The translations under genes were made by a program, and so were the position numbers. Below are positions 10,195 through 57,589 of a stretch of DNA of 64,000 nucleotides, one piece after another. This DNA comes from a virus. Location of the stretch: the IMG/VR virus record IMGVR_UViG_3300022187_000017, positions 1 to 64,000 of that record. One strand, 5' to 3'. Below the pieces are notes generated by a model. The model ran no database searches, was not told the DNA's origin, and worked only from the letters and a program-made list of their open reading frames with translations. How positions within the stretch are numbered: position 1 is the first letter of the stretch; each line of letters begins with the position of its first letter.

Positions 10195-11838
10195 TTAGCT
10201 CAATCCTGATGTGTCATCCAGAATTCTAGCTGTTAAGAAAATCTTATTAACTTCATAATTTGGATTTATTCCAAACTGGATTTTATATGCATCAGAGTCT
10301 ATCTCTACAGTTACATCACTGGAACTGATGATCAAGTTATCTACTGTATTAGTAGCTTCAACATCCTTCAGGTAGTTAACTACCCAAACTCTGACAGTTT
10401 CACTGTCTATTGTGTTTCTATTAGGGCCTGAAACTTGATTTCCAAGTAGGTCTAATATAGCTTGTTTCTTCATTCCAGCCAATAGCTCTCTCATGATTCT
10501 CACAAGTGAGATCTGGTGAGTACTTCCATCAGAATTAACAACAAATGTGTTAAGCTGAACTGTATTGACTCCTTGAACAATTGAAAAGAATTCTAGCTCA
10601 GGAGCATATTTCGTCATCAAAACTCCTGCATCTAATCCAATAGAAACTTCCTGATCTGTTAATGAATGAGCCTCCCCTGATATTGAAATACCTTTGAATG
10701 TTGGAGGTGTCTGAGGATCTAATCCTGCTAAACGACCTGTTACCAGTGCTGCTTTGTACAGTGCATCTTTTAGTCTTAGTGGGTTTACAAGATCACCCGG
10801 ATTGCTTACATAGCACCCACCATGAACCACAACCACATTCTGAGAGTTATGTGCTGTTGCTGCTGCTACTGATTGAGATGCAAAAGTTCCACTTGTTGCT
10901 CCACCACCAATTACATACATTGCTGGATCATTCATCTCAGTATCTAAGTAAGCTGCAATCTTATTAGCATCTACTGAAGTAGCATTACCTGCTTGATCTT
11001 CCATTAAGATGAAATTAATATTCACATCTTTAATTGCTGTAAGTGCAGCAGTGACTTGAGCTGTATCATACGCTGATGTACCACCTGAGAATAAGTTATT
11101 ACCTAAAAGAGTAGTTAAATCTCCTGCTACAATAGCTCCTGTGAATGCTGCTCCTGTTACAATTGTGAAATTGTTGACAAAATCAATATCGTTAACTGCC
11201 CAAAGTAGCATACCTTCCACTGTATCTTCCTCACTAGATTGAGCAATTAATGTTGGACTAGTATCTACCTCTGCTATATTGTTGTATGAATTGCCATTAC
11301 TGTCATTACCTACAAATGAGCCTCTCCAGAACTTCATTATGAATTTAGCTGGATCATTTACACCAGCTGTTAAAGTAATTGCATACCCTTTGGTTAAAAG
11401 ATCTGTTGCTCCTTCTACACCATTTCCTGAAATACCTTCATTCAATAGTCCAAATTCTAATGTAGGATTTGATGCTATTGCTAGGACTGCAGTTGCAGCC
11501 ACTGTTGTTAATGCTCTTGTATACACAATATTAGATGCTCCATTTATTTTAGATCCAAAAGGTCTAAATAATGGAACTGCCATATCATACCATTGACCAC
11601 CACCAATCCACTTCTGGAATTGAGTGATACTGGTGAATGTGTAAAATGAATCTTTCCCTGTTGTTGCTTCTCCAGCAATCCCTGCTCCATTTCCATGAAC
11701 TGAGAGAGGATCTTTGTCAATAATTAGTACAGTACCACTGTCTAATTCTAATCTAGGATTGTTAACTCCACTTTCTACAGTACCGAATACTCCGGGTTTG
11801 TCAACCTTCTTTCCTCCAAATATAAAACTAGTAGCCAT
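10195..11838 (-). CDS. Contractile tail sheath protein
   Basis: N-terminal KPGVF, AALVTGRLAG..PQTPPTFK, IVQGVNT, ISLVRI, C-terminal P..EVNKI motifs; 547 aa. Confidence 0.92.
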   Translation of the reverse strand: MATSFIFGGKKVDKPGVFGTVESGVNNPRLELDSGTVLIIDKDPLSVHGNGAGIAGEATTGKDSFYTFTSITQFQKWIGGGQWYDMAVPLFRPFGSKINGASNIVYTRALTTVAATAVLAIASNPTLEFGLLNEGISGNGVEGATDLLTKGYAITLTAGVNDPAKFIMKFWRGSFVGNDSNGNSYNNIAEVDTSPTLIAQSSEEDTVEGMLLWAVNDIDFVNNFTIVTGAAFTGAIVAGDLTTLLGNNLFSGGTSAYDTAQVTAALTAIKDVNINFILMEDQAGNATSVDANKIAAYLDTEMNDPAMYVIGGGATSGTFASQSVAAATAHNSQNVVVVHGGCYVSNPGDLVNPLRLKDALYKAALVTGRLAGLDPQTPPTFKGISISGEAHSLTDQEVSIGLDAGVLMTKYAPELEFFSIVQGVNTVQLNTFVVNSDGSTHQISLVRIMRELLAGMKKQAILDLLGNQVSGPNRNTIDSETVRVWVVNYLKDVEATNTVDNLIISSSDVTVEIDSDAYKIQFGINPNYEVNKIFLTARILDDTSGLS

Positions 11839-11896
11839 TTATTTTGTTTTTTAATATATATATTTGTTAATATAACAAAATTAAATCAATCTTTCC

Positions 11897-12157
11897 TTAC
11901 TTCTCTGATATATTTACTGCTTTTATAACAGTAGCTTTGACCAAAATGGCCTTCCACTCAGAGAATAATTTCTTCTCACCTCTATATTTTCTGATCACTG
12001 CGACTCTATCCAATGGGTGAATTCCACCATGTAGATCACAAAATCTATCTATAGCACACTCTGTTGTTTCTAAAGTAGAAACAACCTCTGGTGTAACCTT
12101 TGGAGTAACCTTTGGAGTACTCTCTACTGGAGTTTCTTTTGTTTGCTTTTTAGCCAT
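11897..12157 (-). CDS. Small hypothetical virion-module protein with TPKV repeats
   Basis: 86 aa ORF upstream of sheath, a slot occupied by a small gene in Twort-like phages. Confidence 0.55.
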   Translation of the reverse strand: MAKKQTKETPVESTPKVTPKVTPEVVSTLETTECAIDRFCDLHGGIHPLDRVAVIRKYRGEKKLFSEWKAILVKATVIKAVNISEK

Positions 12158-12163
12158 GTCTTT

Positions 12164-12940
12164 TTATTTTAATTCTTCTATAGTAAGTGGTATTTTTGGA
12201 TCAATAGGATCCTCATCATACCCATCCCCTACAGCACCTGATGATAAATCATTTGACCTAGGGAATACAAGGCTACTAAAACTTTCAGTTAAATGGAAGT
12301 TAGGAACCACTGCCTCATTAGCACTATCAATAATAATGCTCCTGCTGTAAAAATGCTCTCCAGCAGCAGTATCATTCATCTTTAACTCATGCCCTGAGAC
12401 ATGAGGATTCTGGAACATATCCAGTATCAATGTATCAAAGATAGCTAAAATTCCGTACTTTACCAAGAAATACATCAACTGAACTTCAATCCAATTATCT
12501 GATGTGAATATTATTGCTATTCTAGTCTGGTACCTTCTTATTCTTTTCTCATAGAAAGTATTGTCATTAGGATTCTCTGTAGGTATTAAATGGCCATGAT
12601 TTGTACTTGATACAAATCCACCACCAATCCAATTATCCTTCTCCTGTTCTGATGGAGCTGCTATATGCATTGTAGGAACATTCTCCCTGTCCTTATCATA
12701 GTAAGATCTTATAGTCACTTTTCTAGCATTTCCTGCTACTGTATCAGCCTGTCTAGTGATAAATAGATCTACTGCCTGAGCATATAGATCATACTTACCA
12801 TTATCATATGATAGGCCATTAAACATCTGTCCAATTACAGACTCTGTTTTGGTAGTCCTAGCATCATAATCAGCCTTTATCCCTGCCATGAAATTCTGGA
12901 GGATTGTTTGCAATTCTAATTCTTGTATCTTTAATGCCAT
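12164..12940 (-). CDS. Putative tail terminator/neck protein
   Basis: Synteny between neck genes and sheath; P.MHI....EQE motif. Confidence 0.5.
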   Translation of the reverse strand: MALKIQELELQTILQNFMAGIKADYDARTTKTESVIGQMFNGLSYDNGKYDLYAQAVDLFITRQADTVAGNARKVTIRSYYDKDRENVPTMHIAAPSEQEKDNWIGGGFVSSTNHGHLIPTENPNDNTFYEKRIRRYQTRIAIIFTSDNWIEVQLMYFLVKYGILAIFDTLILDMFQNPHVSGHELKMNDTAAGEHFYSRSIIIDSANEAVVPNFHLTESFSSLVFPRSNDLSSGAVGDGYDEDPIDPKIPLTIEELK

Positions 12941-35713: not shown

Positions 35714-36346
35714 TTAATCCTCTGGCATGATCTCATTCTCCTCATCCTTTGGTAAATTATAGTCTCCATTCTCACTAAAATCTGATTCATCATACCCTCC
35801 TCTATATTGATCACCCCTCCTATTATTATCTTTCCAGTCATCATTTCTGGTGCCTCCTTCTATAACATATAATAGCCTATCTACTTTCTTTCTTATCCAG
35901 TCAGCCATCAACTTAATAGAATATGATACTGCATCAAATTCTGTTAACTCCTGTCCTGTTCTTATTGAATATAGATTACCTAGTGTAGAGTACCCCTCAT
36001 GCAGTGATAGGATCATTAGTCCCCAATTAAGCATCTTTACTGCATCATCTGTAAATAGTGAATATATTGTTGCTAATATAACTGGAAAGATCAGCATAAC
36101 GAACTTAGAGGCTACCCTTCTAAGTCCTGTTTTGCTGTCTGGCCTTCTCATAGTTGGAACCACTATTGACTTTACAATACCTGTAATAATATCAAATGTC
36201 CACAGTAGTAGAAATACCCCTAGGAATTTAACATTTACCCCATAATCTGCTAACCAATATAACATAGATGCACCAAAGTAAGGTGCTGATTTTAATAGTC
36301 CAGTAAAACTCATGTCTATTTTTAGTATTCTATCAAGCATTATCAA
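35714..36346 (-). CDS. Holin (phage holin family 4-like)
   Basis: Three TM segments, DIITGIVKS...KTGLRRVASK...EGYSTLGNL, acidic C-terminal tail. Confidence 0.75.
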   Translation of the reverse strand: MIMLDRILKIDMSFTGLLKSAPYFGASMLYWLADYGVNVKFLGVFLLLWTFDIITGIVKSIVVPTMRRPDSKTGLRRVASKFVMLIFPVILATIYSLFTDDAVKMLNWGLMILSLHEGYSTLGNLYSIRTGQELTEFDAVSYSIKLMADWIRKKVDRLLYVIEGGTRNDDWKDNNRRGDQYRGGYDESDFSENGDYNLPKDEENEIMPED

Positions 36347-36366: not shown

Positions 36367-37296
36367 TTATCCTATCTTTCTAATTATAAAGTCTAATTCA
36401 CTCTCTCCACCTGTTGTATCCTCAAGTCCATTAAGATCTGCCAATACTTCCTGCCCTGCTGCTACTAGAGCATCTCTAATAGCTTTTCCTTGATATGGGC
36501 TATGTTCCTGATCAAATAAAATACAATCATCCACAACTAACTCCAATGAACTTGCTGACCATACCCTAGTAGGTACTGACTTCACTGCTATATTAGAGAG
36601 CATATCATAATAACTATCTCTTAATGTAGTAAATGTTGGATCTTCAAAATCACTCCATTCATCAAATCCATTACCATATGTTCTATCAACTCTTTGCTTT
36701 GCAGCTGGATCATCATCATATTGGCAGCTTACATCATAACCACTGGATACAAAGTCAGCAAATATGACTGACTCCCATTGAGGATACCAATATCCTGCCT
36801 GTGGGCCTTGTAGTGCTATTGCAACTACATCAGCATCTTCATCTTCAATGGCACTTCCACCACCTGCAGCAAAAGTATTATAGCCTATGTGTTGAGCTAT
36901 ACCTGTACCTGCAGAGCTACCTCTTATTACAAATTTGTTTTTATCAAGATTGAAGAATGTTGCCCAGAACTTTAGAAACTTCACTGCTCTTACTCCTGAG
37001 TCAAATGCTTTTCTAAATCCATTTAATTCAATATCTGTATTTACAAAAGGATAGTTTACTGTAGCTATTGCAATACCATTGGATAAGAAGTTCTCTACAT
37101 CAGTTAGACTTATACCAGTCTTATCTAATGCAACAAAACCACCACCATGAAAATGTACTACTATACCTGTTGTGGGTACTGAAGTAGGTATCCATATATC
37201 TAACACCTCTTTATTCTCATACCCATATTGAATATTATTATAAAAAGTATGAGGTGTTACCAATGTATGGTATGAAGATGATGATATAAACCCCAT
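36367..37296 (-). CDS. Alpha/beta-hydrolase (HSL/BD-FAE-type esterase/lipase)
   Basis: LDIWIP, HFHGGGF oxyanion motif, VNY, GSSAG nucleophile elbow, C-terminal His. Confidence 0.85.
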   Translation of the reverse strand: MGFISSSSYHTLVTPHTFYNNIQYGYENKEVLDIWIPTSVPTTGIVVHFHGGGFVALDKTGISLTDVENFLSNGIAIATVNYPFVNTDIELNGFRKAFDSGVRAVKFLKFWATFFNLDKNKFVIRGSSAGTGIAQHIGYNTFAAGGGSAIEDEDADVVAIALQGPQAGYWYPQWESVIFADFVSSGYDVSCQYDDDPAAKQRVDRTYGNGFDEWSDFEDPTFTTLRDSYYDMLSNIAVKSVPTRVWSASSLELVVDDCILFDQEHSPYQGKAIRDALVAAGQEVLADLNGLEDTTGGESELDFIIRKIG

Positions 37297-39217: not shown

Positions 39218-39796
39218 TTAATTGTAATCATCAATTGAGAATAGTAACTGTAGTGTCCAGTCTCCATCTCCTAATGTTGCATCTCCTGTATTGGCTTTCA
39301 ACATCACCCTATCATTAAATGACATAGGATCTCCAGTTGCTCCTGACTTATCTATTCTTCTTAAATAGTCTGCTGCATCATTTGGTGCTGCTAATACTAC
39401 AATTGTCTGTCCTAGAGTCTCATAATAAACTTCCATATCAGCTGGGAAGTTAAAATTAACTCCATTATGAACTAATCTTTCAGATCCTGCAATGAATCTG
39501 TATGTTTTAAGTGATCCGGGTGCTGGAGCTATCTCCTGTGGAGTAGTATTCAATGCTTTTGCTTCTGCTGGAGTTAGTGGTAGTATAAACTTCTCAATAA
39601 CTGTATTTGATGCTGCTGCAACTGCTGTCCATTTCGTACTAACATCAGTGGCAAATGTTCCTGATGTGTGAGCTGTATTACATAAATATATTGCTCCTGT
39701 TTGGGTTATACAATCACCTACTTGATAAGCTACTCCTGTTACCCATGCTGTAAGTTGAATTGCTGTTTTTGATATGACTCTTCCTTTGAACTCCAT
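39218..39796 (-). CDS. Structural protein with CBM5/12-like carbohydrate-binding motif
   Basis: AWVTGVAYQVGDCIT..GAIYLCNTAHTS. Confidence 0.6.
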   Translation of the reverse strand: MEFKGRVISKTAIQLTAWVTGVAYQVGDCITQTGAIYLCNTAHTSGTFATDVSTKWTAVAAASNTVIEKFILPLTPAEAKALNTTPQEIAPAPGSLKTYRFIAGSERLVHNGVNFNFPADMEVYYETLGQTIVVLAAPNDAADYLRRIDKSGATGDPMSFNDRVMLKANTGDATLGDGDWTLQLLFSIDDYN

Positions 39797-41456: not shown

Positions 41457-42284
41457 TTAGTATTTAAAATAGTCATAGAACCATTGATAAGATGCAATTA
41501 CACTTGCACTAAGGTTCCTTCCTAAAATTTCATCCCAGTCTGGTTTTAATGGTTGAACTTTCTTTCTGATTATATGATCTCCAAATGGGCCATATACTCT
41601 ATCATCTTCATGAGTAATTTGTTCTACATTATCAAAGTCATGATCATAATAAGGAAGTCCTAAGTACTCATACACCCTTTCCATTTCAGCTTTAGGATTT
41701 TCTGTGAAATCTTCAAACTTAATGAACAGTATATGTTCATCATTCCCTACATCGATTATCTCTTTTAGTCTTTCTAATGCCAATCCTACTGGAGGTGAAT
41801 TAGACCACCTAACTAATCTCTTTTCAATAGTAGTTCCTTCACCCTTTCCCCAATCTACTACACCATTATCTGCTTCAGCATTCTTTCTATGCTTCTTCTC
41901 CATTGAAGAAAATACTCCTCTGAGATCTCTTACCATGCAAATCATCTTAGGATCCTCTGAGTAACTTTTTACAAAGTCATAATAATATCCCCAGCCTCTA
42001 CATTTATCGACTACTCTAGGCTTATCTGTGAGAGCTCCATACCACCCTTGTAAACTTCCTTGGCAAAATCCCTTCCATGCCTTCTTCATTTCTTCAGCAT
42101 CTTGTGCTCTGAATTCTTCTGCTGTGGAATATTGCTTCCTTGCTCCAAATAATAGCTCTGCTACTCCTGATGTTGGAGATACATAAAACTCTGGGTTCTG
42201 TCCTATCACATTCTGCAATAAGGTGCTCCCACTTCTTGGTATTGATGACTGGTAGTAAATCTCTATTCTACTATTCTTAGGCAT
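41457..42284 (-). CDS. Sulfotransferase family protein
   Basis: 5'-PSB loop PRSGSTLL, VVDK, 3'-PB motif MVRDLRGVFSS, IKFEDFTENP...VYEYLG. Confidence 0.9.
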   Translation of the reverse strand: MPKNSRIEIYYQSSIPRSGSTLLQNVIGQNPEFYVSPTSGVAELLFGARKQYSTAEEFRAQDAEEMKKAWKGFCQGSLQGWYGALTDKPRVVDKCRGWGYYYDFVKSYSEDPKMICMVRDLRGVFSSMEKKHRKNAEADNGVVDWGKGEGTTIEKRLVRWSNSPPVGLALERLKEIIDVGNDEHILFIKFEDFTENPKAEMERVYEYLGLPYYDHDFDNVEQITHEDDRVYGPFGDHIIRKKVQPLKPDWDEILGRNLSASVIASYQWFYDYFKY

Positions 42285-47181: not shown

Positions 47182-47241
47182 ATAATTAATTTTAGTGTTT
47201 CAAATTTTGCTAGGTCTATGCCCATTATTACTTCACTCATC

Positions 47242-47838
47242 TTAAAACCTCTTCCAGTTAGCTGGATCTGTATCCAGTATGTTGATCTCAAATCCTACCT
47301 GTACTGAGTGCTTAAATGAAGATTTAATGTTATATAGGATCTCAAAATCCTGCCTGTCTACAAATTGTAGTGTAGCTATCCCCTTGAACCCATTAAAGAA
47401 TTCATATCCTAATACAGCTCCAGCTCCAAATCCTCTCTTTGCTAGACCTCTATCAAGTATTCCATAGTCTATGTATAATCCAGCCTCTAAGTGCTCTAAG
47501 AATAGCTGATTGAATGTGTAGCCTACCTCAACTGCATATCTCTTGTATGCTGGTAGTTCTGGATTAAGTGTAGCATATTCAAATGAAGGTGCTACATGCA
47601 TGTATCCCCACTCCTGTTGATTACCTTGCCATCTTGATTTAACTAGAATATTGGTTAACCCTGAAGGGATCCCATGTGCATCATCTCCTATTACAGTAAT
47701 CTTTGGATCTACCTGTACTGATAATGATACTGCTGTCTGTGCTGATCCTACCTGATATATACCCACTAGGAGTACAGCATACAGTAAGATCTGTAATAAT
47801 GTTCTGGTAATACTAATTTGTTTTTTCATGATTTTCAA
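47242..47838 (-). CDS. Outer-membrane beta-barrel protein (small, Bacteroidota type)
   Basis: Signal peptide ending SAQ, amphipathic strands YAVEVGYTF, LEAGLYIDYG, GAGAVLGYEF, SVQVGFEINI. Confidence 0.65.
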   Translation of the reverse strand: MKIMKKQISITRTLLQILLYAVLLVGIYQVGSAQTAVSLSVQVDPKITVIGDDAHGIPSGLTNILVKSRWQGNQQEWGYMHVAPSFEYATLNPELPAYKRYAVEVGYTFNQLFLEHLEAGLYIDYGILDRGLAKRGFGAGAVLGYEFFNGFKGIATLQFVDRQDFEILYNIKSSFKHSVQVGFEINILDTDPANWKRF

Positions 47839-47859
47839 TTTATGTTTATTGTTGTTTAA

Positions 47860-47892
47860 GTTGCGAATATATAACTAATATATTTAATATCC
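47860..47892 (-). promoter_or_regulatory. Early-type promoter (diverged -33)
   Basis: TAAATATATTAGTTATATATTCGC matches the repeated motif. Confidence 0.55.
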
Positions 47893-48482
47893 TAATAAAA
47901 TTTTATATTGTGCCTTACACTGAAGGCTGTTGGATCATTAGTGATCTGAGGAGTCTCCAGCTCCTGTACAAAGGTTATTATCCTCAATCCATCCTCACTA
48001 CCATCATCATAATAGTAAGTCTCACTGTGGCCTCCTATGATCTCTCTACGTATCTTTGGGAACCTCTTCTGGATCTCTTTACTTAGATCCATATTGATTC
48101 CTTTGGCATGTAAGGCTTTCACTAGATGATATTCCTTCTGCTCAGTTATATCCTTTGACATCTTATCAATGGCTGCCTGCATATGGATCTGGCCTTCATC
48201 AAAGTCTATTGAGAACTTATTTGCTGTTGCTATCCTTCTTGGCTCAAAATAAACCTCTTCCACTCTATACCCTTCACATAAACCCCAGATCATCTTGGTG
48301 TCCCTGCATTGAATATATCCTACAGCATGATCAAATAATGCACCACCATACATTGCCTGTATTGGTTTTATACTTGGCTTTTCTATACATAACCCAACTC
48401 TACCATTGGCTCCTTCTGCTCCTGCTCCTCCATTTAATACTTTATAGAGGTACCCTACTTCTAATTGTTTTGTCTCTCCCAT
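47892..48482 (-). CDS. Hypothetical protein
   Basis: 196 aa ORF. Confidence 0.55.
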   Translation of the reverse strand: MGETKQLEVGYLYKVLNGGAGAEGANGRVGLCIEKPSIKPIQAMYGGALFDHAVGYIQCRDTKMIWGLCEGYRVEEVYFEPRRIATANKFSIDFDEGQIHMQAAIDKMSKDITEQKEYHLVKALHAKGINMDLSKEIQKRFPKIRREIIGGHSETYYYDDGSEDGLRIITFVQELETPQITNDPTAFSVRHNIKFY

Positions 48483-49319: not shown

Positions 49320-50108
49320 TTACATCACCCAATCCTCTACTATATCTGGCTCTACTCCTGCCTCCAGAGCTTCCTGTACTGACTTGATAGATTCTCCATT
49401 CTTGAATGTATGGCCTATCTGCTCCTCTACAGCTACATACTCAGCTAATAACTCTGGGTTCTCTTTACCTGCTATTAGGAGTGCATTGAATGGACTGAAG
49501 ATACAGAAACAACATGACAGCCTTGGCATCCCCAGATCATATGCTTTATGATACTCCAGATTGTTACCCTTGATCACATCCCAGACCTTCTTAGAGCTCC
49601 AGTCATGTACAGGTAGATAATCTATCACTGTCCTCTTCTTAGTGGTTAACTGCTTATTTAATGACTCCACCTTTCTCTTAGATCTGGCTGGAGACTCCTC
49701 TGCTCTGAATCCAAATACATACAGGATCTTACAAACTCCCATCTCTTTAGTTAGCTTAGTTACTACTCTAGCACCCGGGCCACGCTTGAAATCACTGGTA
49801 CACCATCTCTGTTGGCTACTTGGCCACTTACCTCTCCTCACTGCATACTCCAGAAGATCCTCCTCATAGCCATCCTTATCTCTTCTCTTGCTGTAATAGG
49901 TCTTTAGTCCCCAGTGATCAGATTGTCTCTTAACTAGCTCCTTTGTGCCTTTCCACTCAACCTTACCTAGATCCTGATGTGACACTACTAACTGATCCAG
50001 AGGATAGCACTGTTCCAATGCCATCTGAACCATTTGCCAGACAGACACTAGAGAGTCCTTCCCTCCAGATGAATTGATGATCACTAGATCATAGTCAGCT
50101 AAGATCAT
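49320..50108 (-). CDS. PAPS-reductase-family PP-loop protein (CysH/DndC-like) with Fe-S Cys motifs
   Basis: SGGKDS PP-loop, RWCTSDFK, GFRAEESPARS, AYDLGMPRLSCCFC. Confidence 0.88.
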   Translation of the reverse strand: MILADYDLVIINSSGGKDSLVSVWQMVQMALEQCYPLDQLVVSHQDLGKVEWKGTKELVKRQSDHWGLKTYYSKRRDKDGYEEDLLEYAVRRGKWPSSQQRWCTSDFKRGPGARVVTKLTKEMGVCKILYVFGFRAEESPARSKRKVESLNKQLTTKKRTVIDYLPVHDWSSKKVWDVIKGNNLEYHKAYDLGMPRLSCCFCIFSPFNALLIAGKENPELLAEYVAVEEQIGHTFKNGESIKSVQEALEAGVEPDIVEDWVM

Positions 50109-50464
50109 AAGTAGACCATTTTAAGGATCTCCTCTTCCCACTCCTTGTAAGAAGGATCTAACTCAAACTTAAAAGTCTGAGGATTGTACTGTGAAGGATG
50201 AATAGCTGAATAATTCACCTCTCTCTTCACCTGATCAGAGGCTTTAAGATAATCAAGTATCTGCTCAATTCCCATCATAAACAAAGATGCAGAGAAATAC
50301 TTATCTACTGTCTCCATTTTAGATGTGTTCTTCTCCCCATTAAAGTAAGTCACTCTAATGATAGGCTTACCAGTATCAAGACACTTAAATGTGTCAACTG
50401 GGAAATCTAGACCTAGACTCTCTAGGCTCTTCTTAATTTCACTAATTGCTTTTTGTGATGTCAT
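50105..50464 (-). CDS. Hypothetical early protein (start revised to MTSQKAI)
   Basis: Track start runs through the promoter at 50484-50520. Confidence 0.55.
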   Translation of the reverse strand: MTSQKAISEIKKSLESLGLDFPVDTFKCLDTGKPIIRVTYFNGEKNTSKMETVDKYFSASLFMMGIEQILDYLKASDQVKREVNYSAIHPSQYNPQTFKFELDPSYKEWEEEILKMVYL

Positions 50465-50483
50465 AATTGTTGTTTTTAATTCT

Positions 50484-50520
50484 GGTGTAAATATAGTTAC
50501 TATATATTTACTGTGCAAAT
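50484..50520 (-). promoter_or_regulatory. Bacteroidota sigma-type early promoter
   Basis: TTTGCACAGTAAATATATAGTAACTATATTTAC. Confidence 0.72.
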
Positions 50521-50579
50521 TTATTTTTAGTGAAATGCCAAAATACCTTGTTAGCACCTATAAACACTAAGAAACTTTT

Positions 50580-50855
50580 TTAATATTTTATTTTTACATG
50601 AATCTCATCAAATAGCATTATGCTTAATGTATCACCATCTGATGTTGACATATTATTGATGTTAATAGCATCTATCATAGTCTGGCTGTAGCTGCAGTCT
50701 TTCATCTCTTCTCTGGCATTCTCTATCATCCATTCATACCACAGCTTGTGAATAGCATTATAATTTCTACCCCTTGGAGATAACTTCTTTCTAGGTATTG
50801 GAGTTAACTTCCTTCCTGATTTACTTCTGGGATCATCTGCTAACATTATCATCAT
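50580..50855 (-). CDS. Hypothetical protein
   Basis: 91 aa ORF after second PP-loop gene. Confidence 0.5.
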   Translation of the reverse strand: MMIMLADDPRSKSGRKLTPIPRKKLSPRGRNYNAIHKLWYEWMIENAREEMKDCSYSQTMIDAININNMSTSDGDTLSIMLFDEIHVKIKY

Positions 50856-50859
50856 ATCT

Positions 50860-51756
50860 CTAATATTTACTCATTACACAATGGCCATGGGACATCTTGT
50901 AGTCCACCAGCTCCTGCTCTGTCATATGCCCAAACTTCTCCAGAGCTGTTTTAAGGACTTCTGGGAGAGGATCTTTCTTACCCCACACACCAAGATTCTT
51001 TTCTTCCATGTGCTCATTAGCCTTCATCTTATTGGCCTCCAGCTTCACCCAGAGGTCATATGATGCTCTGTCATATCTATACAAGTACAATAACTCCTGC
51101 AGGCTCATGAATGGACATAAGATGCAATTGGAAGGATAAGGTACCTTCTCACCTACACTGGTGATGTAATCCTGACATGCTTGCCGATCCATACCCTCTT
51201 CAATCAATGGATACTGCTTATTGATGCAAGTATTAAACCATTTCATCCCACTGGAGCCATTCTCAGAGGCTCTCTTCTCTTCTCCCTTAGCAATGCCTAT
51301 AAGTACATTGATCTTCCCGTACTTCTCAGCAAACTCATAGAATGCTGCTTTCCTACCATACTTCTCAGTGTTGTAGTTGTGATGTACATACAGCTCTAGG
51401 AACTTGTAGATAGGCCTGATCTTCAGGTTATCTGTACAAGTCTTAGGGAATGCCTTAGATCCAACTGTATTTTTGCTCTGGTAGAATTTGATCAATCCAC
51501 CCTTCCAGCTATTGGATGCCCATAGATCAGGCTCCAGATGAAAGAATGGGATCTTATGCTCATCACATAGCTCTTCTACTCTCTCCAGATACTTATCAGT
51601 ATGATCATGCTCATTTCTGGTATTAGCCATAACCACAATAAGATCACCCTTCACATATTTGGCCTTGAATACTGGATCATGTAAACACTTAAAGAGGATG
51701 GCAGTTGAATCCTGCCCTCCTCCATAAGATAACATTGTAAGCTCTTTCTTCTCCAT
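50860..51756 (-). CDS. Second PAPS-reductase-like PP-loop protein (phage subfamily)
   Basis: SYGGGQDS, ANTRNEH, CTDNLKIRPI, IGIAKGEEKRA, YPLIE, SNCILCPF. Confidence 0.8.
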   Translation of the reverse strand: MEKKELTMLSYGGGQDSTAILFKCLHDPVFKAKYVKGDLIVVMANTRNEHDHTDKYLERVEELCDEHKIPFFHLEPDLWASNSWKGGLIKFYQSKNTVGSKAFPKTCTDNLKIRPIYKFLELYVHHNYNTEKYGRKAAFYEFAEKYGKINVLIGIAKGEEKRASENGSSGMKWFNTCINKQYPLIEEGMDRQACQDYITSVGEKVPYPSNCILCPFMSLQELLYLYRYDRASYDLWVKLEANKMKANEHMEEKNLGVWGKKDPLPEVLKTALEKFGHMTEQELVDYKMSHGHCVMSKY

Positions 51757-52079
51757 TACACTAAGCTATGTGCTGTTGCTTGAGAGATCACTGGAAGATC
51801 CTGTGCCTTCTTAACGATCAATTCTAGATCTGCTTCTGCTCTGTATAAAGATACTAGGTTCCCATCTTCTTTGGCCTCATCTGCATTCTCCTTGATAAAA
51901 GTATCACATAGCTCCATTAAATCATTGTATAAGAATCCATCCTGCAATCCATGAAGGCTATTGATGAAGTTATTAAACCCATGCCCATACTGTGAAAAAG
52001 TTCTGATTGTGTTACTTAGGAATGATAATTCGATTCTGTTGAAGTTCTCTTGTCTGTTGAAATTTGTGTAATTTGCCAT
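51756..52079 (-). CDS. Hypothetical early protein
   Basis: Behind promoter 52106-52141; TAATG coupled to PP-loop gene. Confidence 0.55.
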   Translation of the reverse strand: MANYTNFNRQENFNRIELSFLSNTIRTFSQYGHGFNNFINSLHGLQDGFLYNDLMELCDTFIKENADEAKEDGNLVSLYRAEADLELIVKKAQDLPVISQATAHSLV

Positions 52080-52105
52080 GATTTGATGTTTTTGTTGTTA
52101 TTAAT

Positions 52106-52141
52106 GATGTAAATATAGTTACTATATCTCATTCCTGCAAG
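52106..52141 (-). promoter_or_regulatory. Bacteroidota sigma-type early promoter
   Basis: CTTGCAGGAATGAGATATAGTAACTATATTTAC. Confidence 0.7.
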
Positions 52142-52291
52142 ACTTTTTTTACTTAAAACATCAAATAATTTATAACTCACTGATTACCAGTGAGAAAAAT
52201 ATGCATATTTTTTATGCATATCACCCATATATGTATAAAAAAGTGCATAAATGTATACATATATGCTAACAATGCATGATCTTTCATACCA

Positions 52292-52333
52292 ATAAAAAAG
52301 GGAGGATTTACGATCCATTACTGGATTCCTCCC
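52292..52333 (-). terminator. Terminator ending the tmRNA coding piece
   Basis: GGGAGGA-(ATCCA GTAA TGGAT CGTAAA)-TCCTCCC-TTTTTT. Confidence 0.8.
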
Positions 52334-52576
52334 ATACGTCTTATGCAGCCATTCTAAATGGTGCAGTAGATTGTTGTATAACTTCTGGAGTTATAATTAA
52401 AATAGCCTCCTTTATCGCTTCTTTACGCTGTCAAAACCAGTCTACCCCATGTTCCCAGATATAGTGCTGGGATCACTTCCACTTTTTAAACAACCTCCTT
52501 CTGGAGATAGTGGAGTAGATGGGAGTCGAACCCATGTCCAAACATAATCCACAATAATATCAACGAACTACTTTGC
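52292..52576 (-). ncRNA. ssrA: Circularly permuted (two-piece) tmRNA
   Basis: Minus-strand order: acceptor piece (~52576-52511, ...GGACATGGGTTCGACTCCCATCTACTCCA), 62-nt intervening segment (52510-52449), coding piece from GGGGTAGACTGGTTTTGACAG (52448) with tag ORF 52388-52341 PEVIQQSTAPFRMAA*. Acceptor stem GGGGTAG/CTACTCC has G3.U70 and A73. Confidence 0.92.
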
Positions 52577-52578
52577 TG

Positions 52579-52586
52579 TAAAGATA
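52579..52586 (-). promoter_or_regulatory. Putative -7 promoter element for tmRNA
   Basis: TATCTTTA (TAnnTTTR) a few nt upstream of the acceptor piece. Confidence 0.5.
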
Positions 52587-52649
52587 GTAAATCTATCGCT
52601 TTGTATATGATTTCGTTTTAATGAATTATATACTTTGTTGTGTGTAGTT

Positions 52650-52712
52650 TTATACCCGATAAGGTATAATATATGATACATTAACCTATATTATACCCGA
52701 TAAGGTATAATA
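52650..52712. repeat. Two 22-bp direct repeats, each an imperfect palindrome (TTATACC-CGATAA-GGTATAA)
   Basis: ttatacccgataaggtataata at 52650-52671 and 52691-52712. Confidence 0.85.
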
Positions 52713-52725
52713 ACTCACTCATAAA

Positions 52726-53325
52726 TTACACACAACTCTTTATATGATTATCTAGAAGATAAAAACATACATCTGGCTTTCTGGCCTCATCATCATTATA
52801 GTCTATAGGCATCCCTACAGCCTCTTCTACAGTCTTAACCACTATTGTATGCTTCAATCCATATTCCTCTATTAAATGATCATCCCTACCTCCATAACTA
52901 GCTGTTAGGACTAAATTGGAAGGGATCTCATCTATTCTGGCTACCCAATATCTCAGAGACTTTGTATATGCCCAGAATTCAACCTCTGGATGATCTCTAC
53001 ATAACTGCAGCCACATGTCAAAGTATTTCTGGGAGAAGAAGTCTCCAGATGAATGGATCCTTACTGACTCACATTTATTGGGAATCACTGGGATCCCTCC
53101 AGCTCTTGCAAAATCAAAGTTATCCCATCTATGATCTCTCACTGCTGGGAATCTCTCTGCACTGGCTGCATAACATCTATATGCATCACTGCTGTTCTCA
53201 AACTTACCTGTCTCCCTGTCTACCTTCACTAAGCATTCCTCAGCAAATGGACAGGTATGGCCTGTTGGCATGTTCCATTCAAATACTACACCAGTGTAAT
53301 ATTTAGTCTTTCTTGTAAACTTCAT
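52726..53325 (-). CDS. Gp88-like (radical-SAM-related) protein
   Basis: TCPFA..C...CYA, VRIHSSGDFFS, FWAYTKS, PSNLVLTAS motifs. Confidence 0.8.
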   Translation of the reverse strand: MKFTRKTKYYTGVVFEWNMPTGHTCPFAEECLVKVDRETGKFENSSDAYRCYAASAERFPAVRDHRWDNFDFARAGGIPVIPNKCESVRIHSSGDFFSQKYFDMWLQLCRDHPEVEFWAYTKSLRYWVARIDEIPSNLVLTASYGGRDDHLIEEYGLKHTIVVKTVEEAVGMPIDYNDDEARKPDVCFYLLDNHIKSCV

Positions 53326-53378
53326 AGTTCATTATTTATTAGTGTTCATGTTACATGAACAGTCCTCTAGACTGAACA

Positions 53379-53795
53379 TTATGCTGGAATATACTCTCCA
53401 GACTCTTCTCTATCATTCCTGAAGAAGATCCCTCCAGCATAGTGCTCATAAGACCTCTTCACTTTAATGTCTTGCCATCCCTTATAATCTGGGATCAATC
53501 TATACACTAGCTCTGCATAGCACTTCACATCTATACCATTGGGTACATAGATAGTCATCAACTTAGTTGACTGCTCTGGATCCTTCTTATCGATCAGCTT
53601 TTGAGTCCCCACCTTGAATGGAGCTTTAGTGTAATATAGGAATCCCTTCAATGCATCATACAGAAACATAGCATCCTGAACTGTCTTACCTTGGATAGAA
53701 AGTTTCCATCCATCAGATGTTTCTGAGTCTGTATTGACCATTAGGAAGTATCTGTTACTGTCCTTCAATTCGTTATATAGTGCTGGTGTTGCCAT
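53379..53795 (-). CDS. Hypothetical protein resembling OspF/LanKC-lyase-like domain
   Basis: GWKLSIQ...PFKV...KLMTIYVP spacing matches the GWKxHxS/FK/KxxTIYP pattern. Confidence 0.5.
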   Translation of the reverse strand: MATPALYNELKDSNRYFLMVNTDSETSDGWKLSIQGKTVQDAMFLYDALKGFLYYTKAPFKVGTQKLIDKKDPEQSTKLMTIYVPNGIDVKCYAELVYRLIPDYKGWQDIKVKRSYEHYAGGIFFRNDREESGEYIPA

Positions 53796-53798
53796 AGT

Positions 53799-54023
53799 CT
53801 ATCTCTCTTCTATTGTTACTGCAGTGTCATATACTGCCACTGGATACTTCTTCAGCCTACCACTGATATCTCTCTTCTCTTCAGATCCTGCAGATGTTAC
53901 TGTCTGCTTCTGAGTCTGCTTCAGAAATGTCATTGCCTTCCCATGAGTTGGAAAATGAACCTCAGACCTCATTAATGTGAGGCCTGTGATCCTGTCTTTA
54001 TGTGTTACTGTGATGTGTATCAT
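53799..54023 (-). CDS. Hypothetical protein
   Basis: 74 aa. Confidence 0.5.
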   Translation of the reverse strand: MIHITVTHKDRITGLTLMRSEVHFPTHGKAMTFLKQTQKQTVTSAGSEEKRDISGRLKKYPVAVYDTAVTIEER

Positions 54024-54026
54024 AGC

Positions 54027-54158
54027 TTAGTTGCTTAAAGTTTGTATTGCATCCTCATAAGATAGATCTTCTCCTCTTTCCTCTGCCTGCATCATGGCTA
54101 ATCTAGCCAAGTGATGTAGATCTAATCCTATTAAAAACTCTCTTTTTTCTGTTGTCAT
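54027..54158 (-). CDS. Small early protein (43 aa, MTTEKREFLIG...)
   Basis: Hand-translated; directly behind promoter 54183-54218. Confidence 0.55.
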   Translation of the reverse strand: MTTEKREFLIGLDLHHLARLAMMQAEERGEDLSYEDAIQTLSN

Positions 54159-54182
54159 GATATGCTATTTTGCTGTTATTCT

Positions 54183-54218
54183 GGTGTAAATATATACTAA
54201 CTATATTTAATACACAAC
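54183..54218 (-). promoter_or_regulatory. Bacteroidota sigma-type early promoter
   Basis: GTTGTGTATTAAATATAGTTAGTATATATTTAC. Confidence 0.65.
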
Positions 54219-54234
54219 AAAAAAGTGAAAAACT

Positions 54235-54465
54235 TTATGAACTTTGTCTATTCTTCTTATAGGAATGAGAGTCTATCTGGTGCTTATAGATCACCCTCAG
54301 CAGGCCTGTATATCCATATGGCTTATTCTCTGGACATAGGATCTTCTGTGCTTTCTTCACACTCCCTTTAGTCTTTTTGAGTGCTGCAATGATCATCCTC
54401 TTCTCTCCTGCAAAGAGGTTAAATTCCCCTTTGTACATATTTGGTGTATATAATTTATCAGCCAT
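54235..54465 (-). CDS. Fis-like HTH DNA-binding protein
   Basis: EKRMIIAALKKTKGSVKKAQKIL...L.R.I.KH.I (HTH_8 pattern). Confidence 0.6.
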   Translation of the reverse strand: MADKLYTPNMYKGEFNLFAGEKRMIIAALKKTKGSVKKAQKILCPENKPYGYTGLLRVIYKHQIDSHSYKKNRQSS

Positions 54466-55327
54466 TATCCTAGTATTTTTAATCTCTCAATATCCTTCTT
54501 TGTTGCCATATAAAACATCTCTCTGAGTTGCTTGAATGTTAGATCTCTCAATCTCTTAGTTCCATAATAACTCTGAAAATCTTCCATGTGCTTATCCTTA
54601 TACTCCAGCAGGTAGTATTTAATTCTACTAGGTATTTGATCTAATGGATCTGTTTTTTTTGGAGTATTCTCCCCTTCCCATGTTCCACTCATAACTTCTC
54701 TTTTAGTTCTCTCATGATTTCTGTTTATTTACCCATTTAATTGCATTCTTATGATCTTTAATCTCTTCTATGAGTCCTTTGTACTCTGGATCCAGTTCCT
54801 CTTCAGGGAGTATTCCATGTCCCATTCCTACCAGTTCTCTTTCATAGTGTTCCATAGTAGTCTTTAGTAACCTTAATGCTAATGCTTTACTCATGATTAC
54901 TTATAATTACGATTAACTAAGTAGCTACTTAGCGTTAATGGCTTAGGGCATTCCTCTAATGGCTTTCTACTGTGTATATGCCCATTGAAACTTTGCTTAG
55001 TTACTTCAGTACTAAACCCCAAACTACACCCAAAAGATGTTAAGGCTCTACAGTTGTTACAATTTCTTTTCATTCCCATCTCTATCCTTCTTTTATTTTA
55101 AATACACTCCAGCCTTTAGGATTGCCATCTGGATCCACTGTTCTTAGTGTCCCTGCTGCACCCATTAGAAGATACTCAAATGTACCTCCCATCATGTCTA
55201 TGAAGATCTGAGTAACTCTACTCCCACCTCTCATGTATGATATCCCTCTGGTATAATCAGAAGGCTCCAGAAAGACATTTGGATGTCTCACTGGAGTCTC
55301 TTGGTTTAAGTATTGATCTAATGTCAT
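54465..55327 (-). CDS. Cluster of four small hypothetical ORFs (54465-54692, 54712-54894, 54897-55079 Cys-rich, 55082-55327)
   Basis: Tightly packed, same strand. Confidence 0.5.
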
Positions 55328-55983
55328 TACTTGATCTTTCTAGTGGTTACAATGAACCTGTGATGAGGAGCTACTAAATGACCATCTACCCAGATGAATC
55401 TGCAATGGAACTCTTGAGTCTCCTGTTGGATAAGGATCTCTAATTCGCTCCCTCTAGCTCTTGCTGTTGATAATGTCATCTTCTCAGTTGACTTGGCCTC
55501 AGATAATACTCTTAATACCAGCTTATCAAATCTCTGGATCCAACCTTTGTTGGCCTCAGTCATAAATTTGAACTTAGTCAATGACTCTCTTCCAATCATT
55601 ATTCTAGTTGCATTCAGCTTATCCCACTCTCCCATTATAGTCCACTTGGATACTGGAGTATTTAACCACTCTTCTCTCTGTCTATCACTAAACTTCTGGT
55701 AAGAATTTCCATATCTACCATTGTCATAAGGAGCACTCTGACCTAGATCTCCTCTTGTGATAACATCTGTATACTTCTCAGCTGCTGCCTCTCTTGATTC
55801 AGCATCAACTATCATTAACTCCTCTTCAAGATCTTCTAACTGATCCCAATGGTAGTTAGTATACGCTGTCATAAATTTGTTCTCAAAGTCTCTTAGCATC
55901 TTGGCTAATTTCATCTCTAGATTAGACTTCTGAATTCTTCTTCTTTTTACTTCTGCTTGTGATAATTCCTTAATTAGTGTCAT
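55327..55983 (-). CDS. Hypothetical early protein
   Basis: 218 aa behind promoter 56011-56046. Confidence 0.6.
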   Translation of the reverse strand: MTLIKELSQAEVKRRRIQKSNLEMKLAKMLRDFENKFMTAYTNYHWDQLEDLEEELMIVDAESREAAAEKYTDVITRGDLGQSAPYDNGRYGNSYQKFSDRQREEWLNTPVSKWTIMGEWDKLNATRIMIGRESLTKFKFMTEANKGWIQRFDKLVLRVLSEAKSTEKMTLSTARARGSELEILIQQETQEFHCRFIWVDGHLVAPHHRFIVTTRKIK

Positions 55984-56010
55984 AATATGATATTTATTTG
56001 TTGTTAATAT

Positions 56011-56046
56011 GGTGCTAAAATATAGTTAATATATTTACTGTGCAAG
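56011..56046 (-). promoter_or_regulatory. Bacteroidota sigma-type early promoter
   Basis: CTTGCACAGTAAATATATTAACTATATTTTAG. Confidence 0.7.
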
Positions 56047-56474
56047 AAAAAGATGATTTATTTTCACTTTAAATGAATAACACCTCCTTAGAATACCATT
56101 ATTCAACCTCATCACATAAGAATAGTGACATTTGTCATAGCCTTCATAGTGATCCTTAACATAGGCAATAGCATCAAAATAGTGATCTGCCATTACTGTC
56201 ACATAAGTACTTCCAGAGGATCCATAGATCCCCTTATTGAATACTTCCTCGGTTCCTTGATATGGATATGTCCCAGCAAAATACATTATCTACCTATTGA
56301 TTTTAATACTGTGTTAACCTCTCCTAGGTCTTGAGCTTCTTCTTTAGTTGAAGAATATCCAGTATTGTAGTCTCTATCACTACTGTCTATTAGATGAAAC
56401 TTCTCTGATCTGGTTCCATAAATGATCTTCTCTTCTGGCTTACAATTTGCTAATGCTTTGATAAATGTATACAT
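56035..56474 (-). CDS. Two small hypothetical ORFs (56035-56286; 56286-56474 with start revised to MYTFIK)
   Basis: TAATG coupling; behind promoter 56489-56526. Confidence 0.5.
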
Positions 56475-56488
56475 AATTTGTTGTTTTA

Positions 56489-56526
56489 GGCTACTAAAAT
56501 ATAACAAGTATATTTAATACGCAAAT
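56489..56526 (-). promoter_or_regulatory. Bacteroidota sigma-type early promoter
   Basis: TTTGCGTATTAAATATACTTGTTATATTTTAG. Confidence 0.7.
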
Positions 56527-56532
56527 AAAACA

Positions 56533-57366
56533 TCATTTATTTTTATCTACCAGTACCATCCCATAGTCATTTACTCCCTCTGGGATCTGTAGGCCCTGCT
56601 TCTTGATCATCTCATTATTCTTGAATCCACTATAATTCACCTGATGATGCCATCTCTCATACCTCCAGACTACCTTCACAACATCAGGATGCTGCCTCTG
56701 GAGACTCTCAGCAAACTCTTTCCTGTTATTGGTGTCTTTATATACCTCATCAGTATTGCCTCCCTTCATCTTCATTGTTGTGGCCTTCTGCTGTATGAAT
56801 GCATTGAATAGGACTGTTGGATGCCCATCCTTCAGGATCCTAAGACATAGATCTGTATCCTCATTGTACTTACCTCTCCACCTGTACTCCAGATCATTCT
56901 TGATCAATGTGCAGCTGTAGATCCTGTTATTCCTTGAGAATGCTGGCATGACTGTCTTGGCCTTGGCAAAGTGATCATACTGGAATCCTGCTAGTGCTAT
57001 GTTCTCATATCGATCTACAAAGATCTCTGCACACCTGAAGATAGTGCCATCTGTCACCTTCACCTGCAGGTTCCTGTTGAGTCTATTGAACTGCTCTATA
57101 TTGTCATCTAATAACCAGTGCCTCTCATGGCCTTCTGCAATAGAATGCTCCCAGACATAGTTTCTAGCTGGAATGGATCCCTGCCCTAAATTACTGAATG
57201 GGAGCTTTAATATCTTCTCTGGATCAATTACCTCAGCATAGCTATCATACTCCTGTGGCTCCACAACTATACGATAAGGGACTTTCATCCTCTCCAGAGT
57301 CTTAGATGTCATCCTTGACTTCCATCTGCCTTTAGAAATGATATAAACTGGATATTTAGGATTCAT
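56533..57366 (-). CDS. GREB1/TAGT-like GT-A glycosyltransferase (candidate DNA-base modifier)
   Basis: YPVYIISKGR, VVEPQEY..Y, ARNYVWEH, WLLDDNI, YNEDTDL, KGGNT motifs. Confidence 0.8.
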   Translation of the reverse strand: MNPKYPVYIISKGRWKSRMTSKTLERMKVPYRIVVEPQEYDSYAEVIDPEKILKLPFSNLGQGSIPARNYVWEHSIAEGHERHWLLDDNIEQFNRLNRNLQVKVTDGTIFRCAEIFVDRYENIALAGFQYDHFAKAKTVMPAFSRNNRIYSCTLIKNDLEYRWRGKYNEDTDLCLRILKDGHPTVLFNAFIQQKATTMKMKGGNTDEVYKDTNNRKEFAESLQRQHPDVVKVVWRYERWHHQVNYSGFKNNEMIKKQGLQIPEGVNDYGMVLVDKNK

Positions 57367-57589
57367 CTCCTCTATACTCTAGATGTGCATATCTCCTAGG
57401 TGCCATATATGGATACCATAGTGACTTCTGCTTTGGAGTGATCTTCTGCTTCATGAGCTCTTCAAACTCCTTCACATCTTCATCATTCCTGAAGTGAACT
57501 ACTATCTTTCTCTTGGAAGTGAGATCCTCTTGATGGAATTCTGGCATATCTTTCCAGTCCTCCTTCCATGACTCATCCTTCTTGGCCAT
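57356..57589 (-). CDS. Small partner protein of the glycosyltransferase
   Basis: WKDMPEF.QED...VHFRN.EDV..F...KSLWYP; overlaps the GT start. Confidence 0.6.
   Translation of the reverse strand: MAKKDESWKEDWKDMPEFHQEDLTSKRKIVVHFRNDEDVKEFEELMKQKITPKQKSLWYPYMAPRRYAHLEYRGDES

Follow-up and report, generated by a model that had tools for sequence, protein, structure and literature searches.

The enzyme with which phages T2 and T6 add a second glucose to glucosyl-hydroxymethylcytosine belongs to the TAGT family of glycosyltransferases (GTs), and a solitary TAGT of undefined function is present in 288 of 753 GT-encoding phages (PMC13216743). The same family includes human GREB1, which O-GlcNAcylates protein (PMC7968844). 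A second group of enzymes involved in DNA modification carries a 3'-phosphoadenosine-5'-phosphosulfate (PAPS) reductase domain. Every validated phosphorothioation system requires, besides this protein, an NTPase dedicated to it, and phosphorothioation was lacking in isolates whose PAPS-reductase gene stands alone (PMC12914056). A phage PAPS reductase has been reported to promote Dnd evasion, according to the citing account (Piel et al. 2022, as cited in PMC13551039). Here, we analyzed a viral contig of 105,777 bp, IMG/VR record IMGVR_UViG_3300022187_000017, the first 64 kb of which (the window) contains a TAGT glycosyltransferase with a small overlapping partner, two PP-loop proteins (PAPS1 and PAPS2) and a GP88-family protein. 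The original prediction, made from the window, had joined these five genes in one hypermodification pathway. All five open reading frames (ORFs) are present on the minus strand and belong to the families it had named (Pfam, PHROG). With moderate confidence, we interpret them as three independently acquired modules, carried on an accessory island of early genes in a Bacteroidota-type phage of ~106 kb and most likely acting on DNA, rather than as one pathway; the modules would serve DNA modification or counter-defence.

Co-occurrence of the five genes in viral loci

For each protein, the viral loci of its homologs, taken with 10 kb on either side, were searched with every ORF of the genome (TAGT n=80, PAPS1 n=72, PAPS2 n=27, and GP88 n=80). 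A locus search with the single PAPS1 sequence yielded only 2 distant loci, and alignments were used as queries instead. In the TAGT loci, the small partner adjoined the GT in 67 of 80, PAPS1 was found once as a weak match, and PAPS2 and GP88 were absent from all 80. Every other family occurred in at most 15 of these loci, the recurrent ones being generic RusA, ERF, SSB, terminase, and nuclease genes. The PAPS1 loci contained PAPS2 in 5 of 72 cases, GP88 in one (weak) and TAGT in none, and the PAPS2 loci contained a PAPS1-like gene, often adjacent, in 6 of 27 and neither GP88 nor TAGT in any. Around GP88, a TAGT-like GT was present in 19 of 80 loci, the partner and PAPS1 (weak) in one each, and PAPS2 in none. 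At the level of whole records, GP88 occurred in 1 of 20 that carry the partner and TAGT, and in 1 of 9 among the complete genomes. Co-occurrence of the PP-loop genes with the GT or with GP88 is thus close to zero. The parts are independently mobile accessory genes, and the proximity that they show in this phage is not conserved. Among isolated phages, those listed with homologs of TAGT, PAPS1, PAPS2, and GP88 have in common only the cultured Pseudoalteromonas phage KB12-38 (MF098558.1), in which a PAPS2-like and a PAPS1-like gene lie 2.7 kb apart (47215-47973 and 50717-51529).

Thus, the check across related phages that the original prediction had proposed has been carried out, and the modules travel separately. 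A single sulfur- and/or sugar-based pathway is not borne out, since PAPS1, PAPS2, GP88, and the partner-TAGT pair are almost never found in each other's loci, and on the phosphorothioation side the required NTPase is not among the recurrent neighbors of PAPS1 and PAPS2 homologs. The proposed tie between GP88 and the GT exists in other phages and fails for the GT clade studied here. The small overlapping ORF, in contrast, is a true partner of the GT, to which it is fused elsewhere, and the general idea of DNA-directed modification or anti-defence genes, as opposed to housekeeping or sulfur assimilation, is plausible.

The glycosyltransferase with its partner, and GP88

The TAGT protein scored 149.2 bits against PF20691 (Pfam gathering threshold 27.5). 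The end of the partner gene and the start of the GT gene overlap by 11 nt, so that the GGAG-ATG of the GT lies inside the ...D-E-S-stop of the partner. The two are probably translationally coupled, and together they would be equivalent to the single-chain enzyme of most other phages. The partner shows a signature of W-x-x-MPEF-x-Q, a beta-alpha-beta-like core, K-x-W-[YF]-P and then RYVDES, and is referred to below as the MPEF domain. It gave no match in Pfam, PHROG, PADLOC, or NCBIfam, and in the protein atlas it fell only into uncharacterised viral clusters. A hidden Markov model (HMM) of the partner produced 63 matches in the TAGT loci, all beside this GT clade, and none near PAPS genes. Vibrio phage 1.124.O encodes a TAGT homolog of 387 aa whose N-terminal extension is related to the partner, and so is the N-terminus of a natural in-frame fusion of 365 aa (L053). 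When this fusion was compared with 1.84 billion representatives, 3,076 relatives were obtained, 546 of them at E <= 1e-30, and most of the 150 best-matching representatives have the GT and the partner domain on a single chain. Since most top relatives are fused, the split form in this phage is the less common one in a very large family.

The AlphaFold model of the fusion was confident throughout, including the partner domain (predicted local distance difference test, pLDDT, 91.4; predicted template modelling score, pTM, 0.89), and it matched the GT-A enzymes SpsA, ColGalT1, LH3, and mimivirus R699. Judging from the natural fusions and this model, partner and GT should act as one enzyme. In 25 TAGT sequences D87-D88-N89 is invariant, and N168, D170, and D172 form an acidic cluster; with its DD-N metal/donor motif intact, the enzyme would use a nucleotide-sugar donor. 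A sugar epimerase/dehydratase (NAD-dependent, GDP-mannose 4,6-dehydratase-like) was located close to the GT in 7 of the 80 TAGT loci (among them L015, L016, and L017), in L015 at ~11208-12164, ~350 nt downstream of the GT, a hint that the sugar donors of some phages are unusual. A further observation concerns a 5.4-kb contig (L007) with a 72%-identical partner-TAGT module, which also carries a 69%-identical copy of a 220-aa ORF that lies beyond the window in our genome (75675-76337, minus strand) and has a weak TRM-like methyltransferase match (PF02005 E 3.8e-5).

A Pfam scan of 85 fused proteins detected additional domains in several of them: DNA_pol_A in 5, ParB_N in 1, a MazG-like domain in 1, and SLOG (YAcAr) in 2. 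In one of these proteins (P0366), the partner and TAGT occupy residues 12-363 and are followed by a complete Klenow-like polymerase at 431-1021. Based on context and fusions, the partner-TAGT pair is probably DNA-directed, and the fusions to DNA polymerase I, ParB_N, and MazG suggest that the GT would act at the replication fork or behind it, with DNA of the phage as its target.

As to the acceptor, TET/JBP (PF12851), C5 methyltransferase (PF00145), hydroxymethylase of the Thymidylat_synt family (PF00303), and the T4-type alpha- and beta-GTs (PF11440, PF09198) were not found in the genome, which is 98% complete according to CheckV. The 20 other records with partner and TAGT contained no Thymidylat_synt and no Tet_JBP, the latter in a search without a positive control, and T-even phages were not among the TAGT tblastn matches at E 1e-5. 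The original prediction had noted that DpdA, TET, and hydroxymethylase are missing from the window, and this extends to all 105.8 kb; its corresponding remark on DndD and DndE is less firm, as these were not searched by family. The sole SMC-like ATPase identified in the genome, which came up as a candidate DndD, was ruled out because it is SbcC-like. As no known acceptor-making enzyme was found, the acceptor is not the textbook one, and it would be neither hydroxymethylcytosine nor hydroxymethyluracil from any known route. It is conceivable, although we rate this as rather improbable, that the MPEF-TAGT enzyme glycosylates DNA co-replicatively without a hydroxymethyl-pyrimidine, on a canonical base or on an acceptor made by an unrecognised enzyme. 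In some phages, the latter could be a radical-SAM-like GP88 recruited by ParB. If true, this would amount to a new phage DNA glycosylation chemistry in thousands of phage lineages.

GP88 itself matched PF17338 with 116.7 bits (Pfam gathering threshold 24.4) and corresponds to DUF7227 in the protein atlas. Family members are ~197 aa long and 65-77% identical in marine metagenomes, and in their alignment two cysteines and many acidic and aromatic residues are invariant and one further cysteine is nearly so. A Foldseek search with the GP88 model returned no match at E <= 1e-3; the fold matches that were listed are weak and enriched for radical-SAM enzymes, with QueE, viperin, and pyruvate formate-lyase (PFL)-activating enzyme on top. 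The model is a partial (beta/alpha) barrel with an N-terminal, Cys-bearing loop after the first strand. In the GP88 loci, 42 ParB_N proteins were located near GP88, as assigned by BLAST to one Pfam-confirmed ParB_N protein, and one GP88-ParB_N fusion was present. What first appeared to be a second GP88 paralog in these loci was an artefact of single-linkage clustering, by which ParB_N proteins were chained in via this one real fusion. In these loci a ParB_N gene usually comes directly before the TAGT-like GT (PF20691 E 1.6e-34 in the single case tested), and several loci contain contiguous GP88-ParB_N-TAGT cassettes; this GT is of a different clade, with ParB_N in place of the MPEF domain. GP88 may therefore be described as a small barrel enzyme, possibly radical-SAM-like and, given its ties to ParB_N and TAGT-like GTs in other phages, probably acting on DNA. 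For the partner-TAGT module it would be dispensable.

The two PP-loop proteins

PAPS1 contains the PP-loop S14-G-G-K-D-S19, of which S14, G16, and K17-S19 are invariant, and PAPS2 contains G12-G-G-Q-D-S17, with G12 and G14-S17 invariant. The Cys clusters seen earlier in both proteins proved to be conserved: C103, C199, and C202 of PAPS1 are invariant in 25 homologs, and C107, C194, C211, C214, and C293 of PAPS2 in 29. Among the defence models of PADLOC, PAPS1 matched BrxP (E 2.6e-24), DndC (E 6e-10), and SspD (E 7e-9), and PAPS2 matched SspD (E 1e-7). Homologs of PAPS1 number 1,724, are 62-70% identical, and occur across Bacteroidota genomes and phage-size contigs; PAPS2 has 599, mostly without a Pfam label. 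A comparison of the two profiles gave a weak (E 0.026) and colinear match, with CT[SD]DxKxxP, EE..R, and CxxCxF in common, and by these sequence criteria the proteins are distant paralogs. Single-sequence searches of the PDB with all four enzymes gave nothing useful, and the PAPS2 profile found no relative there. The CxxC of PAPS1 aligns with the Fe-S CxxC of adenosine-5'-phosphosulfate (APS) reductase 2goy, and PAPS1 is probably an Fe-S dependent ATP pyrophosphatase. Both proteins would be ATP pyrophosphatases of the DndC/BrxP/SspD kind with a shared Cys triad, and not true PAPS reductases. PAPS1 does not qualify as DndC proper, since its score is below the equivalog cut-off (TIGR03183, 35.3 versus 290.4 bits), and of the BrxP model it covers only positions 133-340 of 779, a core domain of ~210 aa.

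No conserved ATPase neighbor was detected in the 72 PAPS1 or the 27 PAPS2 loci. Partners of the kind of DndD/DndE, SspB/SspC, and BrxC/BrxZ/BrxL were not recurrent beside the homologs, where DndD and DndE were not searched by family. The commonest neighbor of both families is an orphan C5 DNA methyltransferase (10 of 72 PAPS1 and 5 of 27 PAPS2 loci), which is often adjacent. The PP-loop proteins would thus lack both the ATPase and the DNA-recognizing partners with which phosphorothioation systems work autonomously. We favor an orphan, host-system-directed role over sulfur assimilation and over an autonomous modification system. Most likely, the two proteins would tamper with sulfur-based DNA modification or defence of the host, either through partner proteins of the host, recruited to mark the DNA of the phage, or through interference with the system of the host. 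The anti-Dnd protein JSS1_004 is a kinase and has no bearing on these proteins.

Genome context, alternative explanations, and related systems

Nearly all genes of the genome are on the minus strand and its GC content is ~37%. The contig ends (1-150 and 105630-105777) share a repeat of ~150 nt, and from this overlap the contig, listed as linear in IMG/VR, is probably circular or circularly permuted. The genome encodes a DnaE-type polymerase, RecA, an SbcC-like ATPase, RNase H, and a dNMP kinase. The polymerase is closest to those of Chryseobacterium, Cellulophaga, Tenacibaculum, and Bacteroides phages, with 30-37% identity, which indicates that the genome is that of a novel Bacteroidota-type phage. 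Chryseobacterium phage MA9V-3, which has the closest polymerase among named relatives, was not among the TAGT or PAPS1 matches, and megablast of the 8.3-kb region against phage records gave no match. The features of this region are listed in Table 1.

Table 1. Features of the 8.3-kb region, with positions in the 64-kb window
Feature	Position	Strand	Family match
PP-loop protein 1 (PAPS1), 262 aa	49320..50108	-	PAPS_reduct E 3.5e-14; phrog_424 E 1.8e-32
Two small ORFs between the PP-loop genes, 150 aa and 91 aa	50105..50855	-	no family
PP-loop protein 2 (PAPS2)	50860..51756	-	phrog_424 E 2.1e-21; PP-loop/PAPS_reduct only E 4e-3 (Pfam)
Permuted tmRNA gene	52341..52556	-	Rfam RF04321, 56.1 bits (gathering 47), E 4.7e-9
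GP88-family protein	52726..53325	-	PF17338 E 1.8e-33
TAGT glycosyltransferase, solitary type	56533..57366	-	PF20691 E 1.9e-43; phrog_842 E 3e-41
77-aa partner of the GT (MPEF domain)	57356..57589	-	none

The gene for transfer-messenger RNA (tmRNA) sits in an ORF-free gap between the PP-loop block and GP88. It was detected by Rfam, although ARAGORN reported no tRNA or tmRNA in 44-64 kb. A sigma-70-like promoter, TTTACA-17-TATTAT with a TG extension, lies just upstream of it (52582-52554). The surrounding region had been called promoter-rich, which did not hold: 33 sigma-70-like sites were counted compared to 35.1 +/- 5.5 in shuffled sequences, in a scan that does not cover Bacteroidota promoters. 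The 150-aa and 91-aa ORFs had no tblastn matches in the PAPS1 or PAPS2 loci. A weak PADLOC match of the 150-aa ORF to TGT (E 4.9e-4) was dropped, as a genome-wide search showed no TGT, QueC, or ParB_N. Outside the island, in the late region, a sulfotransferase (Sulfotransfer_3 E 6.9e-17; 41457-42284, minus strand) would take PAPS as donor. Near it are a BD-FAE/alpha-beta hydrolase (36367-37296), a CBM_5_12 protein (39218-39796), and a holin (35714-36346), and the sulfotransferase and its neighbors may form a host-glycan-modifying set.

The motif biases that the predicted pathway was meant to explain are real and extreme throughout the genome. The observed-to-expected ratio of CpG is 0.084 (289 CpG in 105.8 kb), CCAGG and CCTGG are absent where ~82 are expected, CTTAAG is absent where 17 are expected, and AAGCTT, GTGCAC, and GCGC are absent as well. 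Enriched are GATC (1.21x), GGCC (1.54x), and CCGG (2.7x), of which GATC and GGCC, both in mild excess, coincide with known Dnd consensus motifs. Near-total avoidance of CpG, CCWGG, and several 6-mers is the behavior of an unprotected genome, which argues against blanket cytosine hypermodification; blanket base modification does not explain the avoidance.

Several observations weigh against the interpretation of three separate, DNA-directed modules. The five genes lie within 8.3 kb on one strand, PAPS1 and PAPS2 stay adjacent in a relative with 92% and 82% identity, respectively, and a local functional link among the five in this phage is conceivable. The original prediction, in which all five cooperate to hypermodify DNA by a single uncharacterised route based on sulfur and/or sugar, would also agree with the phage group that links GP88 to TAGT-like GTs and with the PP-loop genes being sometimes adjacent elsewhere and both present in KB12-38. 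However, we give this pathway little credence, because the PP-loop genes co-occur with the GT or GP88 at a frequency near zero, 19 of 20 records with this GT clade lack GP88, and the parts are separated here by about a dozen unrelated small ORFs and the tmRNA. A different set of points concerns the target. Contact of these proteins with DNA is deduced from context and fusions, and divergent hydroxylases could escape Pfam, as could Tet_JBP members in the uncontrolled search. Moreover, GREB1 glycosylates protein, and by analogy a protein target is possible (PMC7968844). The partner-TAGT enzyme might then glycosylate a host or phage protein, a nucleotide, or a signalling molecule as a takeover or anti-defence device. 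This would suit the lack of an acceptor-generating enzyme in the genomes examined and, for a nucleotide substrate, the MazG-like and SLOG fusions. We regard it as unlikely, if deserving of serious attention, since the complete DNA polymerase I fusions (5 of 85), the ParB_N fusion, and the ParB_N-TAGT operons point to DNA, which is also the substrate of the only phage members characterised so far (PMC13216743).

The PP-loop proteins allow two further explanations. They could modify RNA, either tRNA or the nearby tmRNA, for instance by thiolation like the Fe-S enzymes TtcA and TtuA or like TilS. The best NCBIfam/Pfam matches of PAPS2 are indeed to the TilS/PP-loop family (E about 1e-3 to 4e-3), the tmRNA is located 260 nt upstream of the PAPS2 block, and another locus (L162) has a permuted tmRNA (6511-6811) and tRNAs between its PAPS1-like and PAPS2 genes. 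Yet, these matches are weak, only 1 of 7 loci had a tmRNA next to PP-loop genes, the commonest neighbor is a DNA C5 methyltransferase, and PAPS1 clearly groups with BrxP, DndC, and SspD, making an RNA substrate quite improbable. Alternatively, they could be true PAPS/APS reductases, auxiliary metabolic genes that boost sulfate assimilation of the host. This annotation is common in viromics (PMC13369170), and it would be in line with the Pfam PAPS_reduct match, with APS/PAPS reductases as nearest solved relatives, and with the sulfotransferase, which would use PAPS. However, PAPS1 scores far below the CysH/APS reductase cut-offs (TIGR00434, 32 versus 165.1 bits; TIGR02057, 24.3 versus 254.2; TIGR02055, 35.6 versus 235.3), and its best match is BrxP. 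It lacks the C-terminal ECGLH-type catalytic Cys, as the protein ends in ...EDWVM and has no conserved Cys beyond position 202. In addition, its SGGKDS ATP-pyrophosphatase loop is intact, whereas true PAPS reductases carry a degenerate form of this loop. We consider this reductase explanation hardly credible, and advise against taking the two 'PAPS reductase' genes for auxiliary genes of sulfur metabolism.

The main outcome of this analysis is a sharper definition of a large, uncharacterised, and probably DNA-directed GT family, for which no acceptor pathway is known and whose members share a conserved adaptor domain. The question of the solitary TAGTs is sharpened by an extra domain that is either split or fused, by fusions to DNA polymerase I and ParB, and by the consistent failure to find known acceptor-producing enzymes, even in complete genomes. 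As partner and GT are two small proteins, a clean biochemical test is feasible. Second, two 'PAPS reductases' are reclassified as orphans that resemble DndC and BrxP; KB12-38 could be an experimental model of their dual arrangement. If either module modifies DNA, this would affect restriction, BREX/Dnd defence, and the sequencing and cloning of such phages.

Compared with known systems, the PP-loop proteins are nearest to DndC, SspD, and BrxP (PMC12914056, PMC12707154), with which PAPS1 shares the PP-loop domain and a Cys conservation consistent with an Fe-S site. In BrxP of type 4 BREX, the PAPS-reductase domain is fused to an SspB-like DUF4007 and encoded with BrxC, BrxZ, and BrxL; the match of PAPS1 is partial, and such neighbors are not recurrent in its loci. 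With the phage PAPS reductase of Piel et al., as far as the citing account describes it, the genes here share a solitary position in a variable, anti-defence-type region. PAPS1 had no match to Vibrio phages at E 1e-5, which counts against the host-directed role favored here, since that precedent may concern a different subfamily. GP88 weakly resembles the compact radical-SAM enzymes QueE, viperin, and PFL-activating enzyme in size, partial barrel topology, and a Cys-bearing loop. TET/JBP-associated GT systems, as reportedly described by Iyer and colleagues in 2013 and Burke and colleagues in 2021, combine a C5-methylase, TET, and a GT; the GT family and the phage context are shared, but the defining TET/JBP and C5-methyltransferase were not found here, nor TET/JBP in the 20 records. 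The closest relatives of the GT are the T2/T6 beta-glucosyl-HMC-alpha-glucosyltransferase (HMC, hydroxymethylcytosine) and the solitary TAGTs (PMC13216743, PMC13390438), which are likewise phage-encoded and have the same Pfam/PHROG family, GT-A fold, and acidic DD motif. To the T2/T6 enzyme the relationship is at the profile level only, and our phage differs in having no hydroxymethylcytosine pathway, primary GT, or TET, in the DNA polymerase I and ParB fusions of its relatives, and perhaps in the conserved MPEF domain, which it encodes as a separate coupled protein. Its TAGT belongs to the large class of TAGTs that occur without an alpha- or beta-GT.

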